The notes under the pieces are model-generated. The model did not search any database. It saw only the letters and a list, made by a program, of their open reading frames with translations, and had not been told where the DNA came from. A stretch of 36,983 nt of DNA, from positions 1 to 36,983 of IMG/VR virus record IMGVR_UViG_3300020045_019002; one strand, 5' to 3'. Both the position numbers and the translations under genes were made by a program. The DNA is from a virus (taxonomy: Duplodnaviria; Caudoviricetes). Of this stretch, positions 10,798 through 26,567 are shown piece after piece. Positions within the stretch are counted from its first letter, which is position 1. Each line of letters starts with the position of its first letter.

Positions 10798-10902
10798 TTA
10801 TGCGGCTGTGCAGCGAAGATTAAAGACCCAAGAATCATTAGTGATTCGTGGAACTTGTGCAAATCTGCATGCTGCTGTTTGTCTTAATTCTGCTGGGTCA
10901 TC
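10798..10902 (-). CDS. Major capsid protein exon 3 (DDPAELRQTAACRFAQVPRITNDSWVFNLRCTAA*)
   Basis: Follows the intron terminal G at 10903 and joins exon 2 in frame (HPPGHG|DDPAELRQT), resembling the N4-gp56-type C-terminal G-DP-x-Q-x-T motif. Confidence 0.85.
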   Translation of the reverse strand, partial: DDPAELRQTAACRFAQVPRITNDSWVFNLRCTAA

Positions 10903-10940
10903 CAAATTTCTGTTACTTAATGACTTAAATAGACTAATTA

Positions 10941-10949
10941 TGTTATAAT
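10941..10949 (+). promoter_or_regulatory. Extended -10 promoter element (TGTTATAAT) for the antisense LAGLIDADG gene
   Basis: TGnTATAAT ends 7 nt before ATG 10957; no SD, so probably leaderless. Confidence 0.6.
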
Positions 10950-10956
10950 TGCTGTT

Positions 10957-11856
10957 ATGAAAGATGATTTTGATCTTGCTTATGTAGCTGGATATATTGA
11001 TGGAGATGGCTCTTTTTATTGTCGAAAAGAACCTGACAAGAGAAATGGGAAGATCTATTTCCGGTGTGGAATAAGAATTTCTTCTACAAACGTCCAAGTT
11101 CTTCAGGATTTTAAATATCGCTTTGGTGGATCTGTTTCTAGCGGAGCGATTTATAAAAATCGATCCCATCATAAACCGATCTTCTCTTATCATCTTCAAA
11201 ATCAAAAAGCCTTTGCTCTCTCCAAATTGTTGATCCCTTTCCTTACAGAAAAAAAGCAACAAGCCGAAATACTGTGTCAGTTTTTCAAAAGCAAAAATTC
11301 TGATTTTAAAATATCTTGCACAACTAAAATTACAGAATGCAAAAGTCTTTCGAAAGATATTGATAGACCTATAAAAGAACTCATTACTAAAACAAAAAAC
11401 ACGATCGAACCAATAGCTGAAGATTTTTCTTATCTCGCTGGTTTTATCGACGCTGAATGTTGTCTTAAAATTATGAGAACTAGAGGTTCTAAAAAACTCT
11501 CTCAAAAAATTTATCTTTGCTGTAACAACACATCCTATACAGTTTTTAAATGGATAATTCCTAGATTTGGAGGCAATTTGTATTTTGTTTCTAGAACAAA
11601 CAAAAACCCAAGTTGCAGCGATCAACTTTATTGGTATATTTCCAGTAAGGCTCTCGAACTTCTTCTTCCGAAGATTTATCCAGTACTCAGATTTAAAAAA
11701 CCTATATGCAAACAATTGATAAACTTTTCTGAAACAATATTTCCAAATGGAGGAGATCGCCAGTCCAAGCAATTCAAAACTGCTCTGGCTTTTGCTCTTC
11801 TCAAGCGTGAATTTATTATCCAAAAAGTTCATCTTTTAAACCGTAAAGGTTGTTAA
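10957..11856 (+). CDS. Double-motif LAGLIDADG homing endonuclease, antisense inside intron 2, 299 aa
   Basis: Motifs LAYVAGYIDGDGSF and FSYLAGFIDAECCL; RFGG turns; LIPFLTEKKQQAEI. Confidence 0.92.
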   Translation: MKDDFDLAYVAGYIDGDGSFYCRKEPDKRNGKIYFRCGIRISSTNVQVLQDFKYRFGGSVSSGAIYKNRSHHKPIFSYHLQNQKAFALSKLLIPFLTEKKQQAEILCQFFKSKNSDFKISCTTKITECKSLSKDIDRPIKELITKTKNTIEPIAEDFSYLAGFIDAECCLKIMRTRGSKKLSQKIYLCCNNTSYTVFKWIIPRFGGNLYFVSRTNKNPSCSDQLYWYISSKALELLLPKIYPVLRFKKPICKQLINFSETIFPNGGDRQSKQFKTALAFALLKREFIIQKVHLLNRKGC

Positions 11857-12059
11857 CTTATTTAAGCGGGGAAAGTTCTTCGACTCTCCCTCTCGGGGTT
11901 TCCTCCCGAGTTCAGACTATCGCTTCTCTTTTCAGAGTCTCTAGACTTAGTCGTTCACGCTGCAAGAAGCATTTCTGCTTCAGCTTGCGCCTTGTCGCCA
12001 TAGCTTTCGCCGTAGGTGTCCAAGTCAATCACTAGAGATTTATCCACGGCAATGACTTC

Positions 12060-12555
12060 ACCGTGACCTGGTGGATGAAAAATGAAAGCAGCCGATTGGC
12101 TAGTTTGATCAATCACTCCATAAGCTTCTCTACCTGTTACGAATACGTTGTAGATATCCGCTCCAAGTAAGGACGCATTAGTGGTAATGGAACCGCGTGA
12201 AGAGACCATAAATCGGATGTTTCCGACAGATCCCCATTCGGCTGAACCAACACCTTGTTGATTTGGATATTGGGCCTTTTCAATGAATCCAGCTACGTTG
12301 CGAAGCTGACCGATCATGTCTGTGTGAGCCATCCCAAAATAGGCATCCATAATTGGGCCTGTACCAAATTTATCATCCCCTTCTTTCATGGACGTGATAA
12401 AATCAGCATCGTTTGATTGAAGAGTTTGAACTACAGCATCCACATCGGCGGCTGTAATTTCTGTGGGGTTATCGCCGTTTGTTCCATTTACGCAGTTAAC
12501 TACTGAAGCCGTTCCTGCCAGCATATCGCGGCAAAGTTCGTCTTCTGTTTCACGC
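12060..12555 (-). CDS. Major capsid protein exon 2
   Basis: (AT|G)RETEDELCRDMLAG...AYFGMAHTDM...YPNQQGVGSAEWGSVGNIRFMVSS...GREAYG...HPPGHG, an N4-gp56/HK97-fold core pattern. Confidence 0.88.
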
Positions 12556-12704
12556 CAAAATCTGTTACTTTCACCTTTCTGGGCTACTGACCATATTTCT
12601 ATGGCGGAAGGTCTTGTTATTCCCTTCTCCAAATCTTTCGAAATGGGTCGGACTATCGCACATGGTATTTTATAACCATTCAAACCGCTTAGTCTCTGCG
12701 GGTC

Positions 12705-12733
12705 TTGATTTCTTTTCAGTTTCACTGTAAACT
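12705..12733 (+). promoter_or_regulatory. Sigma70-type promoter TTGATT-N17-TAAACT for the antisense LAGLIDADG gene
   Basis: The -10 element ends 7 nt before ATG 12741, the same geometry as in intron 2. Confidence 0.55.
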
Positions 12734-12740
12734 CATTGGA

Positions 12741-13670
12741 ATGAAAGAAGAATTGTTTTATCTTGCTGGCTATTTTGAAGGAGATGGATGTTTTCGAATT
12801 TCTAAATATCTTCAAAAAAAGAAGAATATTTTTGTTTACGAGCGTTCCATGACTATTACAAGTGTTTGTAAACCAACAATAGAATTTTTCTGTAATCAAT
12901 TTAATGGATTTATGCAAATCGTTGCATCGAAAGAAAGAAAAAAAACAGCCTTTGTCTGGACTATAAAAGGAAAAGAATCGGCTTGTCTTGCCAAAAAACT
13001 TCTTCCTTATTTTATTAGCAAAAAAACAGAATGTTCTTTGTTTATAGATATAGACAATTCGGTTGTACAAAATAATTTCAAAAAAGTTTCTAGTAAAATA
13101 CGTGAAAAGCGAGAAGCTCTTTTTGATCAACTTAAAACTGATCGTCACAAAACGTTGCTTGTTATAAAAGAAAAAATAGATGTTATTTCTAAGACTAAAA
13201 AAACTGTCGTACCATTTTGGTATGACTATATTTTTCTTGCAGGTCTTGCAGATGCTGAAGGATGCTTTAGAATTTGTGCTAGGCACCGCAACAGAAACAA
13301 CAAAAAAGAAAAGATTTATAATATCACTTTTGAAATTGGAAATACTAAGATTGCCATAATTGAATGGCTTGTTGATAGATTTGGCGGCAATGTTACCTTT
13401 ATTGAGGCAAAAAAAACATGGAAAGGTAAACGTGCAATTGCCATTTGGGCTATCCATTCTAAATCTCTTTTTCCAATTTTGAATAAAATTCATCCTTTTC
13501 TTAAAAATAAACAAGCTGTTTGTGAAGAGCTTATTAAATTCCAACAAACAATTCTTCCTAATGGAGGCGATAGACACAGCGACTCTTTTAAAAAAGATAT
13601 CGCTCGACGAAAAGCCATAAGAGAAGATATTATTAGCGCCGTTCATATTTTGAATCGCAAAGGAATTTAA
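12741..13670 (+). CDS. Double-motif LAGLIDADG homing endonuclease, antisense inside intron 1, 309 aa
   Basis: Motifs LFYLAGYFEGDGCF and YIFLAGLADAEGCF. Shares the C-terminal TI-PNGGDR-S--FK...VH-LNRKG with the intron 2 enzyme. Confidence 0.92.
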   Translation: MKEELFYLAGYFEGDGCFRISKYLQKKKNIFVYERSMTITSVCKPTIEFFCNQFNGFMQIVASKERKKTAFVWTIKGKESACLAKKLLPYFISKKTECSLFIDIDNSVVQNNFKKVSSKIREKREALFDQLKTDRHKTLLVIKEKIDVISKTKKTVVPFWYDYIFLAGLADAEGCFRICARHRNRNNKKEKIYNITFEIGNTKIAIIEWLVDRFGGNVTFIEAKKTWKGKRAIAIWAIHSKSLFPILNKIHPFLKNKQAVCEELIKFQQTILPNGGDRHSDSFKKDIARRKAIREDIISAVHILNRKGI

Positions 13671-13765
13671 TGTTCAAGTTCCCTCTGGTTGTCATAGGAA
13701 GTTATGCAGCTTCCCTTAGATTTTCCAAGGTATTCAGGTTTGATTTAAAGTCCACACGTATGTTT

Positions 13766-14118
13766 ATGGACTGACCCAATCTTGCAGCAGCGGCATTCAA
13801 AACTGGATCTTCATTGATGGCCGTCACCTGACGGGTCAAAATTACATAAGTTGCGTAGAAATCAATCCGTGCATCCAAGTCCACTGCATTTAATTGTTGT
13901 GCAGGTGGGTTGTTGAATGTTGTATTGAGTGGAACTGGGAATGTATTAAGGCGCGTGTAGCGTCTCATACGCATAATATCTCCGCTTCTGTCCGGCATCA
14001 CATAAGGTGTTGCGAAAGCTTTGTGAATCAATCTCGCTTGAGGAGTTGCTAAAAGCTTTTCGTTGAACCGTTGTGCTACAGGAGGTGGCAAAGATGTGCT
14101 TGTTGTAATAGCACTCAT
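13766..14118 (-). CDS. Major capsid protein exon 1 (N4-gp56-like; spliced CDS 954 nt, 317 aa)
   Basis: After the scaffold gene, SD GGAG. MSAITTSTSLPPPV...MPDRSGDIMRMRRYTRL...EDPVLNAAAARLGQS; AT|G rebuilds a Met codon on splicing. Confidence 0.88.
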
Positions 14119-18654: not shown

Positions 18655-18727
18655 TGCTGGCAGAAGGATTTGAACCCACAACCCCCTGAGTACAAAACAG
18701 GTGCTCTTCCAATTGAGCTATGCCAGC
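18655..18727 (-). tRNA. tRNA-Thr(TGT)
   Basis: GCTGGCA acceptor, GCTC/GAGC D-arm, anticodon loop TT-TGT-AC, GGTTCAAATCC T-arm. Trailer is TCA rather than CCA; mismatches in the anticodon and T stems. Confidence 0.88.
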
Positions 18728-23082: not shown

Positions 23083-23406
23083 TCATTTCCTCTGGTATCT
23101 TGTTCTAAGAAGTAAAGCGGTTGTGGGATCTTTTTTAAATCGTCTAGTTAAAAGTCTAGAGATTCGGGGAAATCTTACATTGCATATCTCGGCTGAACGC
23201 CAATTACTCACTATACAACACACTTTCACTTTTCTTTCTTCTAGATTCAAAATGTAGGTCGGCTTGTGCTTATCGTTTCTCCAATGCTCACAATATTCTC
23301 CACCCACAAGGCACAATAACATAAGTGATTTTCTTAAATGTTCGCACATAACGGCCTCTATCATTTCGTGGGAAGAAAGACACTTGTTTGCTTTCTCAAT
23401 ACCCAT
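23083..23406 (-). CDS. Cys-rich hypothetical protein, 107 aa
   Basis: SD GAGGAG, start overlaps the end of TerL. Confidence 0.5.
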   Translation of the reverse strand: MGIEKANKCLSSHEMIEAVMCEHLRKSLMLLCLVGGEYCEHWRNDKHKPTYILNLEERKVKVCCIVSNWRSAEICNVRFPRISRLLTRRFKKDPTTALLLRTRYQRK

Positions 23407-25735
23407 GCTTACTCCTCATCTCCTTAAGTTTTTCTTTCGTCATCCCGCCTGGTGTATTGCCCACAAACTCAAGGGCTTGCGTTAAGTAGCGTAGGCAGTC
23501 TGAGTTGCTAACTAAAATGCCGTTTGCAAAATAACAATGATCGCTTTCGACCTCGATATCAAAAACCTCTATTTCGATGTCCAAGCGCAGCTCCGCAACT
23601 TCTTGAACATGTTGTTTGTATTGAGTATTTAGAAGTATTATAAACGGCTCCACAAAATTCGCATTTTCTTTCTTCGAAATCCATTTTTTCTCTATAACGG
23701 CCTTTCTGTTTACATGCGGAGGAGCAGTATTTTTGGTGATATGTTTTGGCGCCGTATTTTTTTTTACATTGAATGCAAATCTTGGGGATATGAAAAATAC
23801 CAAATCTAAATCTTCGAGCATGTTTTTTATGCCATTTAATGCCTTCCTCACTGCCATGCCACACTTTTGCAAATTCCATGGCTTTATAAATGCCCTTACG
23901 TGAGACTTCTTTTCGTTCTTCGGTTGACATATGCTCCCTGAGATGCTTTCTTTTTTCGATGCACTCAAGATTTTCAATCTGATTATTTCTCGAATTTTCG
24001 TCTTTATGGTGAATATGATGCCCTCTTGGGATCTTTCCATTACGCTTTGCCCAAACTGCTCTTTGTAAATAGGAATGCTTATTAGATGTGGTTGAGCCTC
24101 TTTTATAATATCTTTCATACCATCTGTAATAGTATCCGTCGAAAATGATTTGTTTTTCATCCTCGCTAATAAGAAACTCTCCCGAAACCCTAAATCTTGT
24201 ATCCTTGAGTTTGATCCAAATTGTTTCTGCCATTCATCTATTCCCTCTATAGAATATAGAGGATCATTATATCGTAGAGCATCAGAAAAAACAAGTGAAT
24301 TGCCGCTAAATATCTTGTGATTTTTTGTGCAGATTATTTCACCGTGATCAAATTTAATATTTATTAATTCCTTAACAGTATATCTGAATTTGGTAAGCAC
24401 TTTTCTTTTTCCGGTTGGCGTTAGCACGAAATCCCCCACTAAGACACCTTTTATCGGCTTTTCTCCAAATGGTGTTGCAATAAGGGTTTCTCCTATAAAA
24501 CACGAATGGCTCGACCAATCGTGCCTCGGCCTGCCCCTGAATACCTGAGCCCTGTCATCCCATTCAGCATGGTATTGCAATAAGCACTTGATCAAATATT
24601 CGCATCTCGTCTTGTCAATAAACATTCTGGGCATTGTGGATCGAACTTTTTCAATACCTTCCATAATGGAATACTTGTTTTCGAGGATCGAAAAATCAAA
24701 TCCTGCTTCTCTTGCCGTTTGAACGAAGGTCGTTCCCGTATTGTTGTGGCTTTTCCCGTCGTGGGGCGCGAAATGTTTTCCATAATTATACTTCCTTTCT
24801 CTTAGCACATTTAGATAGTGTGATAAAGCGTACCCCGTGTTCTCATAATGATCAACGATCAAGATTTCATTACCACGTATTTGAAAAAATATGATCACCA
24901 TTGCATCTGTAAAGCCTAAATCCCATACAGTATATACGAGGCGATTTTCTTCAATGGGCACATAGCCAATGCGTCCCTCTTTTTCCATTTGCTCGAGCTG
25001 CTTGCCGTAGTAAGATCCGACAACGCCGGAATCAAATGAACAAAAGTATTCTTGCCTTATCATTTCTTCGGAAATACCCTGGGAACGCTTCCTGTCGATC
25101 TCCTTTAGCTCAATTAGGCCTGTATCCTCGATGGTATATAAAGAAGCATGCCATTCGGGGTCAGTCTTGGCGTATTCATAAAGTTCATAAAAGTGATTTT
25201 TGCTTTGTGGCGTACTGTTGAAAATTGCCCACCCTTTGTTCTTAGCCAGAATAGGATCTAAAATGGCCGTCCATACGAGCGGATGTTGATAAGCGTACTC
25301 TGAAAGAACAACACCCATTGGATTTGTTCCGCGCAGAGCATCATAGTGATCAGAGCCTAGCACTTGTATAATTGAGCCGTTAAATAGCTTGAGTTTCATT
25401 TCGTTGAGCCATTTCTGTTCAAGCGCGTGGGGAGGAATAAAGTCTAGATAGCTCATTCCATCTTCAGTGATGTTATCCCAAAAGGCTTTGCGTGCCTGTG
25501 CGTAGGACGGAAAAACGTAGAAATAGACACCCTTGCGTATGCATGCTTTTTCAAGCAAGATGTTCCAGCACGTGATATCTTTACCGCCTCGCCTGTGATA
25601 GACAATAACAGCTCTTTTTTTTCCCTCGCCTGCTCTGCCATCTACGATCATATCCGAGTCTCTCATAGCCCAAATAACTGGCTCTTGGTGTGGGTATGGC
25701 TCGAATAGATGGGGCAGTTTAATGTCTATAGTCAT
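23396..25735 (-). CDS. terL: Terminase large subunit with intein (779-aa precursor, 446 aa spliced)
   Basis: Walker A HRRGGKD, LRGTNPMGVVLSEYA, FNSTP, QEYFCSF, nuclease WDLGFTD. Spliced HDWSSHS|SDCLRY matches the HDWSSHxxDxxRY motif. Confidence 0.95.
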   Translation of the reverse strand: MTIDIKLPHLFEPYPHQEPVIWAMRDSDMIVDGRAGEGKKRAVIVYHRRGGKDITCWNILLEKACIRKGVYFYVFPSYAQARKAFWDNITEDGMSYLDFIPPHALEQKWLNEMKLKLFNGSIIQVLGSDHYDALRGTNPMGVVLSEYAYQHPLVWTAILDPILAKNKGWAIFNSTPQSKNHFYELYEYAKTDPEWHASLYTIEDTGLIELKEIDRKRSQGISEEMIRQEYFCSFDSGVVGSYYGKQLEQMEKEGRIGYVPIEENRLVYTVWDLGFTDAMVIIFFQIRGNEILIVDHYENTGYALSHYLNVLRERKYNYGKHFAPHDGKSHNNTGTTFVQTAREAGFDFSILENKYSIMEGIEKVRSTMPRMFIDKTRCEYLIKCLLQYHAEWDDRAQVFRGRPRHDWSSHSCFIGETLIATPFGEKPIKGVLVGDFVLTPTGKRKVLTKFRYTVKELINIKFDHGEIICTKNHKIFSGNSLVFSDALRYNDPLYSIEGIDEWQKQFGSNSRIQDLGFRESFLLARMKNKSFSTDTITDGMKDIIKEAQPHLISIPIYKEQFGQSVMERSQEGIIFTIKTKIREIIRLKILSASKKESISGSICQPKNEKKSHVRAFIKPWNLQKCGMAVRKALNGIKNMLEDLDLVFFISPRFAFNVKKNTAPKHITKNTAPPHVNRKAVIEKKWISKKENANFVEPFIILLNTQYKQHVQEVAELRLDIEIEVFDIEVESDHCYFANGILVSNSDCLRYLTQALEFVGNTPGGMTKEKLKEMRSKHGY
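23504..24502 (-). mobile_element. Intein in the TerL nuclease domain (333 aa, residues 412-744)
   Basis: Block A CFIGETLIATPFGEKPI; block B IICTKNHKIF; blocks F/G VFDIEVESDHCYFANGILVSN followed by Ser+1. Confidence 0.93.
23559..24233 (-). CDS. HNH endonuclease with C-terminal CxxC...CSxxC zinc-finger repeats, nested out of frame inside the intein, 224 aa
   Basis: YLQRAVWAKRNGKIPRGHHIHHKDENSRNNQIENLECIEKRKHLREH; CIQC..YCSSAC; CEFC..TCSRSC; SD GAGGG 9 nt before the ATG. Confidence 0.9.
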   Translation of the reverse strand: MAETIWIKLKDTRFRVSGEFLISEDEKQIIFDGYYYRWYERYYKRGSTTSNKHSYLQRAVWAKRNGKIPRGHHIHHKDENSRNNQIENLECIEKRKHLREHMSTEERKEVSRKGIYKAMEFAKVWHGSEEGIKWHKKHARRFRFGIFHIPKICIQCKKKYGAKTYHQKYCSSACKQKGRYREKMDFEERKCEFCGAVYNTSKYSIQTTCSRSCGAALGHRNRGF

Positions 25736-25823: not shown

Positions 25824-26567
25824 ATGACTAAACATTATTTAACCGCAATCGGTTTGGCTTTAACATGTGCCTCTATCGTTAGCGGATCAGAAGTTGATCA
25901 ACTACAGCCGTCACGCTCTATTTTTACGAATAAAGAGCAAACGGCACATGTATGCTATAGCAAAGAGGACATTTCTTTTGGCAGCGTTAAGCGCGTTTCT
26001 GTGAGCACGTCTGCTCTCATGGAAAAAGAAGAGGCTAACACCATCTATTATGGTATTGATGCATCTTTCGGCGGAGTGTGGAGTACCTATGCTCTAGACT
26101 ATATCCCAGACACCACAGTTACAATTAAGCATTTCGGCCTAGGTGCAACTATCGGTCTTAGAGGTGGATATTCATGGGAGCTGTTTAGCAAGCTCGCGCT
26201 CACACCATATCTTAAGCTAAGCACTGGTTTTTTTGCCCCAGAATCCCAATTCATCAGCAGTTTTGTCAACGGTTATAATTCTGCTATTGGACTCAGGGCA
26301 TCTTACGCCTTTTTAAGTTCACTTACAGCTGGTCTTGACGTGAGTATTTCAAGGCCTCTTGGAAGATATTCTAGGATAACTTACTTAAAAAAAGGATGGA
26401 CTGGGACGGGCAAAGAAAAGTTCGGCTACTCTGCTGCGCTCCCTATCACGTATAAACCGGCTAAGTGGGATCACATCAAGTTCTTTGTTGAGCCTAAATA
26501 TGCAGGCTCTCATCTTGCTCATAAGGGATCTTTTGAGTACGGAATTGGCACAATCTACTGTTTTTAA
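25824..26567 (+). CDS. Outer-membrane beta-barrel protein (moron), 247 aa
   Basis: Signal peptide; alternating strands (GATIGLRGGYSW, LTAGLDVSIS); C-terminal FEYGIGTIYCF; SD AGGAGG; upstream TTGACG at 25769. Confidence 0.75.
   Translation: MTKHYLTAIGLALTCASIVSGSEVDQLQPSRSIFTNKEQTAHVCYSKEDISFGSVKRVSVSTSALMEKEEANTIYYGIDASFGGVWSTYALDYIPDTTVTIKHFGLGATIGLRGGYSWELFSKLALTPYLKLSTGFFAPESQFISSFVNGYNSAIGLRASYAFLSSLTAGLDVSISRPLGRYSRITYLKKGWTGTGKEKFGYSAALPITYKPAKWDHIKFFVEPKYAGSHLAHKGSFEYGIGTIYCF

Follow-up and report, generated by a model that had tools for sequence, protein, structure and literature searches.

The group I introns of three phage T4 genes, td, nrdB and nrdD (I-TevI/II/III), interrupt phage messenger RNAs (mRNAs), present an early in-frame stop after exon 1 and carry an endonuclease gene with its own promoter in a peripheral loop (PMC2988022, PMC3984707, PMC3073962). 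In the accessible parts of these reviews, which deal with sense-strand intron open reading frames (ORFs) and with limiting ribosome entry, the endonucleases have the sense orientation, which leaves the loop open to translation by default, and ribosomes have limited entry to the core. Antisense genes are also on record. His-Cys endonuclease genes of nuclear ribosomal DNA (rDNA) introns, e.g. I-DirII, have their own promoter inside the group I intron and, in the text available, lie in an untranslated eukaryotic ribosomal RNA (PMC3073962, PMC9548176), and the major capsid gene of mycobacteriophage LittleE has a group I-like intron, with splicing seen by reverse transcription PCR, that bears the LAGLIDADG-like gene gp14 on its bottom strand (PMC3706429). 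Here we describe virus record IMGVR_UViG_3300020045_019002 (Caudoviricetes), analysed over its entire 37 kb (36,983 nucleotides (nt); the window), in which both introns of the major capsid gene hold an antisense LAGLIDADG endonuclease gene and in which the capsid message strand opposite each of these genes is kept free of stop codons in one frame, hereafter the filler frame.

The locus resembles LittleE in that the phage major capsid gene is interrupted by a group I-like intron whose endonuclease-like gene lies on the bottom strand, and it resembles the T4 introns in its early stop after exon 1 and in the predicted promoter of the endonuclease gene. LittleE differs in its 61% guanine plus cytosine and in its single copy, and the accessible text on it mentions no open opposite frame; T4 differs in that ribosome entry into the core is limited, whereas here the frame is held open into or through the core. 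In nuclear rDNA introns transcription and translation are not coupled, so no filler frame would be expected there. Antisense intron endonucleases are already known, as LittleE shows; the selected filler frame makes the locus a variant of the mobile group I intron. A search of the full-text literature, mostly without subscription papers and supplements, found no description of an intron endonuclease gene faced by a stop-free frame under selection. The features of the locus are as follows.

13766..14118, minus strand: capsid exon 1 (117 codons plus 2 nt; phrog_1357 match)
12556..13765, minus strand: intron 1 (1210 nt, group I type; insert in P6 region; ends in G)
12060..12555, minus strand: capsid exon 2 (165 codons)
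10903..12059, minus strand: intron 2 (1157 nt, group I type; insert in P9 region near the 3' end)
10798..10902, minus strand: capsid exon 3 (34 codons plus stop)
12741..13670, plus strand: LAGLIDADG endonuclease gene 1 (309 amino acids, two-motif; antisense to intron 1; no TTA, CTA or TCA)
10957..11856, plus strand: LAGLIDADG endonuclease gene 2 (299 amino acids, two-motif; antisense to intron 2; one TTA at 11836)
12705..12733, plus strand: predicted sigma70-type promoter of endonuclease 1 (TTGATT, 17 nt, TAAACT, 7 nt to ATG; leaderless mRNA predicted)
10920..10949, plus strand: promoter predicted for endonuclease 2 (ATGACT, 18-nt spacer, TG-n-TATAAT, 7 nt to ATG)
11955..13646, minus strand: filler frame A (563 codons from ATG 13646)
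10798..11832, minus strand: filler frame B (344 codons from ATG 11832)

The stop-free frame in the window and in related introns

The original prediction had described two open minus-strand frames, and both are present from stop to stop at 13673-11955 and 11835-10798, with 563 and 344 amino acids from their ATGs. Its claim that they continue in phase into the next exon is also correct and can be refined: frame A comprises 302 codons antisense to endonuclease 1, 62 of the ribozyme core, all 165 of exon 2 and a final 34 within intron 2, and frame B comprises 292 codons antisense to endonuclease 2, 18 of linker and the 34 of exon 3. Such frames stay open only if the endonuclease genes avoid TTA, CTA and TCA. 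Our recount agrees with the earlier one, in that 47 Leu codons (20 + 27) and 41 Ser codons (16 + 25) include one codon of this kind, the TTA at 11836, upstream of the opposite-strand ATG. From window codon usage 12.2 (gene 1) and 17.0 (gene 2) stops would be expected up to the tail His, and the probability of finding none is 2.3e-7 and 5.7e-10, respectively; the open frames are thus not common by chance. A stop-free codon-aligned opposite frame occurs in none of the 25 other window genes, and the remaining two minus frames hold 15-32 stops each. Both ATGs, 13646 and 11832, coincide with the same CAT His codon of the VH-LNRKG tail, as had been noted.

A protein search yielded 194 homologues, and an alignment of 58 was used to fetch 165 loci; profile hits numbered 181, of which 142 were distinct. 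Nearly all homologues lie antisense within capsid introns, at several insertion sites. The counting set consisted of 119 genes of at least 600 nt, namely 114 antisense genes (108 after 90% dereplication; the antisense orientation was assumed for a few genes whose short contigs show no capsid exon), two sense genes and three (L156, L163 and L080) set apart after stops were seen in them and no capsid match was found. Only one of 3692 core Leu/TCN codons in the 108 antisense genes makes a stop on the message strand, whereas upstream of the His-ATG 60 of 231 such codons do, and among the first ten codons of the endonuclease 13 of 107. The open message-strand frame is a family-wide, strongly selected trait. 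The predicted avoidance of TTA, CTA and TCA extends to these relatives, with a single core stop, and the proposal that selection keeps the frame open draws strong support from the counts and from the open promoter linker described below.

Stops are frequent (162/399; 41%) among more distant LAGLIDADG hits from the same phages where these are sense-oriented (16 genes). Among 38 more distant antisense LAGLIDADG hits there are 20 in 874, 15 of these from L065 and L231, and two further antisense single-motif genes from genome bins have none (0/13 and 0/18). Copies outside introns hold 12 (L156), 21 (L163) and 7 of 33 (L335). The open frame depends on the antisense-in-intron context. L156 is located behind a transfer RNA (tRNA) gene, L163 (G002) beside a resolvase gene in a chromosome-like contig and L335 (G176) likewise in a chromosome-like contig; these look like escaped members of the intron lineage in which stop avoidance has decayed to differing degrees. 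L080 lies in a co-oriented gene cluster of a distant phage.

In a domain tree most antisense open genes, both single- and double-motif, cluster together with a support of 0.90, and most sense genes fall outside this cluster. This grouping and the loss of the open frame in copies outside introns bear out an earlier suggestion, that of an endonuclease lineage adapted to the antisense position. The internally deleted endonuclease L074 retains the ATG and the frame; candidate dead endonucleases are few (L074, L034 and L123, truncated, and L075, with one stop). L065 (4422-4974) and L231 (intron near capsid codon 88-97) belong to a single-motif antisense clade that may be a natural counter-example or a recent inversion.

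One explanation would leave the message strand out of account: the endonuclease may shun TTA, CTA and TCA for its own translation, through tRNA supply or composition, with the open frame as a by-product. The three codons do share A-ending Leu/Ser decoding. However, the same genes use them upstream of the opposite-strand ATG and use other A-ending codons throughout, sense and free-standing relatives use them, and the frame is also open in the non-coding promoter linker, in 43/43 P6-type introns vs 14/86 other frames. Linker openness rules out an endonuclease codon preference, and we give the by-product explanation almost no credence.

Signs of translation and apparent lack of amino-acid constraint

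The filler frame is probably translated, as judged from its start region. In 101 of 104 cases an in-frame ATG lies between -20 and +60 nt relative to the endonuclease stop, compared with 368 of 957 control windows (38%), and the tail His is coded by CAT in 79/82 genes vs 580/762 at other His positions. The Shine-Dalgarno energy at the filler ATG, calculated with what we take to be the anti-Shine-Dalgarno sequence, is -2.4 kcal vs 0.0 after synonymous resampling (n = 79, p = 3e-10); for comparison, capsid starts have a median of -4.8 kcal, and the ATG of frame B a weak -2.9 kcal. In all 43 P6-type introns the frame stays open for at least 57 nt past the endonuclease start and runs into the core.

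Exon 1 in the window, if unspliced, terminates at TAA 13704-13702 within intron 1. Read-through or frameshifting from exon 1 into the filler frame was considered and rejected, the relative phase being mixed (7/14/33 at site 118, 16/9/12 at site 145). In L025 and L030 the filler start codon and the stop of the exon frame, as estimated from BLAST ends, share nucleotides (ATGA), the classic layout of translational coupling. The terminal Gly of NxKG (window 13662-13664 and 11848-11850), about 18 nt upstream of the filler ATG, is coded by GGT or GGC in 89 of 92 genes, compared with 45% in family usage, a constraint at the nucleotide level. A conserved hairpin masking the ribosome-binding site was rejected as its cause, single-sequence folds being weak and inconsistent.

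The amino acids of the filler frame are apparently unconstrained. Four-fold third positions of the endonuclease genes, which are first positions of antisense codons, are near saturation at 60-70% endonuclease identity (likeness 0.40 vs 0.37 expected at random), and the antisense identity of distant pairs equals that after synonymous resampling (0.25 vs 0.24; 0.29 vs 0.28). In 22 independent close pairs the four-fold distance is 0.92 at a protein distance of 0.27, and silent transitions reach 0.73 of saturation if the antisense change is conservative and 0.77 if it is not. C-termini and lengths of the antisense frame vary among relatives. Outside its capsid part the product has no Pfam or PHROG match, the protein search gave no homologue of it, and its best score in an atlas search was 0.82, i.e. 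chance level.

A genuine overlapping protein with its own function might be free or joined to capsid fragments; the latter form had been among the purposes originally put forward. Such a protein would account for the selected ATG and Shine-Dalgarno, for an exon fusion above chance and for the small four-fold excess over random, which persists; in addition, within 16 pairs the four-fold sites of the endonuclease genes show greater likeness (0.51) than those of the capsid genes (0.36). These pairs were picked by endonuclease likeness, and recent homing together with the choice of pairs can explain their excess, although weak constraint may do so as well. With antisense amino acids that behave like resampled ones, variable ends and no homologue, we consider such a protein very improbable and the claim not upheld.

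In-phase reading into the next exon is found in 28 of 83 scorable introns. Frames in exon phase are open to the splice site in 15/25 (P6) and 13/17 (P9) cases; where the frame is not in exon phase, the unused exon-phase frame is open in 0/18 (P6) and 3/23 (P9). The relatives counted are non-independent, but the fused cases are scattered on the tree, and the counts indicate that fusion is favoured once in phase, yet dispensable. The fusion to the next capsid exon emphasized in the original prediction is therefore true of the window and non-random, but, as two thirds of the relatives stop within the intron, it is not the core of the phenomenon.

What ribosomes on the insert might achieve

A survey of 140 distinct capsid introns from 315 loci places the filler frame in a wider setting. 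The longest ORF-free stretch in the 94 introns of at least 600 nt has a median of 94 nt, and it exceeds 400 nt only in L231, L065 and a contig-end artefact, L081, whose frame runs off the contig. Unrelated sense ORFs of 56-96 codons, with strong Shine-Dalgarno sequences from the intron core and running into the core, occupy 16 of 26 mid-size introns. It appears that intron inserts are almost always translatable and that ribosome entry into the core is tolerated. The introns with small ORFs (310-590 nt; L003, L007, L012, L017, L061, L109, L118, L188, L194, L196, L236, L262, L267, L305 and others) have P6 inserts with no endonuclease likeness and ends (QPERLSE or QPERSKRED) read through the core, and look like group I introns with cargo genes.

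The explanation we favour, with confidence no higher than even, is that the filler frame covers with ribosomes some 0.9 kb of pre-mRNA that would otherwise be naked, and thereby prevents Rho-type premature termination of the capsid-tail transcript. Each endonuclease gene is opposed to the capsid gene; on the message strand one frame has been cleared of stops from the conserved ATG onwards, and it remains open up to the vicinity of structured intron RNA or of the 3' splice site, with amino acids that seem to drift freely. The endonuclease would be expressed from its own convergent promoter as a leaderless mRNA. Exon-1 ribosomes would halt early in the intron and fresh ones would initiate at the filler ATG, to follow RNA polymerase across the AU-rich insert and also across the next exon where a copy is in exon phase; the unspliced precursor and the downstream tail genes would be completed and the peptide would be waste. 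Each stop removed lengthens the covered stretch, so that evolution of the frame in small steps is conceivable, whereas a functional protein could not arise in this way. This stop-by-stop evolvability, the position of the capsid gene early in a long co-oriented run of structural genes and the extension of cover beyond the endonuclease gene and, where possible, into the next exon are the reasons for favouring a threat of the Rho type. In leader peptides, upstream ORFs and Rho polarity it is likewise the act of translation that matters and not the peptide; leader peptides and upstream ORFs are short and regulatory, whereas the filler frame has about 300 codons, looks constitutive and is carved from another gene's antisense strand.

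Rho is probably available in the likely hosts. In the phylum to which a Parachlamydiaceae bin belongs, 10 of 401 genomes contain capsid homologues, five of them non-seed at an expectation value (E) < 1e-40 and some deep in long contigs; in two other phyla, at 400 non-seed genomes each, none as strong (E < 1e-40) was found. Rho is over the cut-off in five of five genomes with capsid homologues, with Rho fragments in two more, the host itself being tentatively assigned from genome bins, and the accessible text of one report describes Rho polarity in Chlamydia (PMC7755916). Related capsid-scaffold-tail modules deep in long contigs of the likely host phylum (L326 in G287:C1, L325 in G173:C4 and L327 in G291:C1) may be prophages or domesticated modules.

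The same filler frame could instead meet a different threat, be it endonucleolytic decay of the AU-rich insert or pairing with the fully complementary endonuclease mRNA (leading to double-strand cleavage of the capsid precursor or to silencing of the endonuclease), or its ribosomes could push polymerase past the convergent promoter. All the evidence of translation without amino-acid selection applies equally here, the frame is nearly coextensive with the stretch complementary to the predicted leaderless mRNA, and the covered strand is U-rich, folds more weakly than exon 2 and is not C-rich; a downstream exon left uncovered would also be accounted for. However, P6-type frames remain open beyond the complementary stretch, by the 57 nt or more given above, and duplex avoidance needs neither exon-phase read-through nor translated inserts other than endonucleases. 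We hold this alternative to be possible, on the doubtful side. That the frame serves as cover in one of these ways, against Rho-type termination or against decay and pairing, is likely. Regarding the ribosome-coverage and anti-Rho purpose of the original prediction, coverage is, we infer, the purpose that fits best, whereas the part of Rho specifically is unproven.

Translation through the insert might also aid or time intron folding, by keeping the long loop from mispairing with the core or by delaying splicing. Ribosomes chaperone T4 introns according to the accessible parts of two reviews (PMC3984707, PMC3073962), and the frames enter the core in all 43 P6-type cases. On the other hand, the frame end points range from -24 to +165 nt or run through, P9-type inserts are outside the core yet equally strictly purged, and mispairing would select against particular sequences and not against every stop, all of which makes a folding role unlikely.

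Several observations weigh against ribosome cover aimed at Rho. Antisense inserts of about 500 nt do not all depend on a filler frame: L065 and L231 (antisense, one clade, genes of ~470-530 nt) hold 7/18 and 8/17 stops and have no filler frame, and in LittleE (JF937101) the codon-aligned message-strand frame is broken mid-gene by TAG TAA. The frame ends within the intron in 55 of the 83 scorable introns, where the next exon would be uncovered until splicing. The covered strand has 36% U and a median C/G ratio of 1.0 (108 genes), unlike the C-rich textbook Rho sites. Frame A has no Shine-Dalgarno at its ATG (+0.3 kcal), 55 nt past the exon-1 stop, and so would need re-initiation at that distance. 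To these are added the grouping in the tree, which points largely to one lineage rather than many origins and thus to non-independent cases, and the placing of single phage contigs in bins of other phyla as well, with a host inferred from genome bins. Finally, ribosomes in the core impair splicing in T4 td, according to the part of the review available (PMC2988022).

If ribosome cover is its purpose, the filler frame would be a natural gene of 300 codons existing only to be translated, a view we think somewhat better than evenly supported. It would imply that an endonuclease lineage flipped to antisense in mRNA introns and gained a leaderless promoter from intron sequence, at the cost of a start codon, a ribosome-binding site and a near-absolute purge of opposite-strand stops; that loop inserts of bacterial mRNA introns must as a general rule be covered by ribosomes; and that in a third of these phages junk-capsid fusion peptides are made from the unspliced precursor. 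The family separates two selections usually confounded in overlapping genes, that for an open frame being near absolute and that for a protein undetectable, and it does so in ~100 diverged copies with natural controls in the sense and the escaped copies. It opens to testing the standing question of how, in a bacterial operon with high expression and coupled transcription and translation, an untranslated intron stretch of a kilobase can survive; it points to a rule for designing expression tools based on introns; and it carries a warning for annotation, as the length and good start of an antisense frame do not guarantee a useful protein product.

Introns, endonucleases and the surrounding phage genes

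Both capsid insertions are, from sequence and consensus folding, group I-type introns with putative self-splicing; helix names follow what we take to be the general group I architecture. A covariation alignment of intron 2 with 11 relatives shows the P1 U-G pair at the 5' splice site in 12/12 introns and a P3/P7 pseudoknot core with its G-binding G-C pair, in which 97% of cells are paired and seven pairs have two-sided changes (slid controls 34-59%); P4, P6, P8 and P9 are present in the consensus fold. In intron 2, P1, P3, P4, P6, P7, P8 and P9 are all 5' of the insert. Intron 1, located by sequence only, has P1 with U(13766)-G(13755) and P7 strands near 12698-12688 and 12659-12650. Both introns end in G, and their excision restores the capsid reading frame. 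Rfam Intron_gpI gave no match in the introns at the gathering score or at E <= 5, which we attribute to the 1-kb inserts breaking the model, and a weak match (E 0.067) in the small relative L012.

The two genes are, by profile and motif, two-motif LAGLIDADG homing endonucleases with the acidic catalytic residue (PF00961, 42.8 and 42.3 bits; cut-off 23.1), the motifs being visible in the alignment; their cutting of an intron-less allele is putative. Such alleles exist, as the joined capsid exons (318 codons without a stop) are collinear with uninterrupted homologues of 317-318 amino acids. The family promoter profile (100 genes) has a -10 box about 7 nt 5' of the endonuclease ATG and a TTGAC-like -35 box. 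The predicted promoter of endonuclease 2 is the top of nine scored sites, yet the scan total is no higher than in shuffles.

The capsid gene, on the minus strand in three exons, encodes a protein that matches phrog_1357 (major head protein), and the record also contains P22-like portal, terminase, RecT/YqaJ, DnaC-like and integrase genes. A search for RNA sequencing runs that contain the stretch listed none, and DNA contigs from four sequencing runs cover short pieces of it only, several of them identical to the window. An outer-membrane-like protein at 25824-26567 (plus strand) has no Pfam or PHROG match, and a tRNA gene (18655-18727, minus strand) is located near the integrase gene. The terminase gene (23396-25735, minus strand) has an intein-like insert at about residues 410-748, with the frame open throughout, and an HNH endonuclease gene (23559-24233, minus strand) is nested in another frame of the same strand, a second overlap forced by a mobile element.

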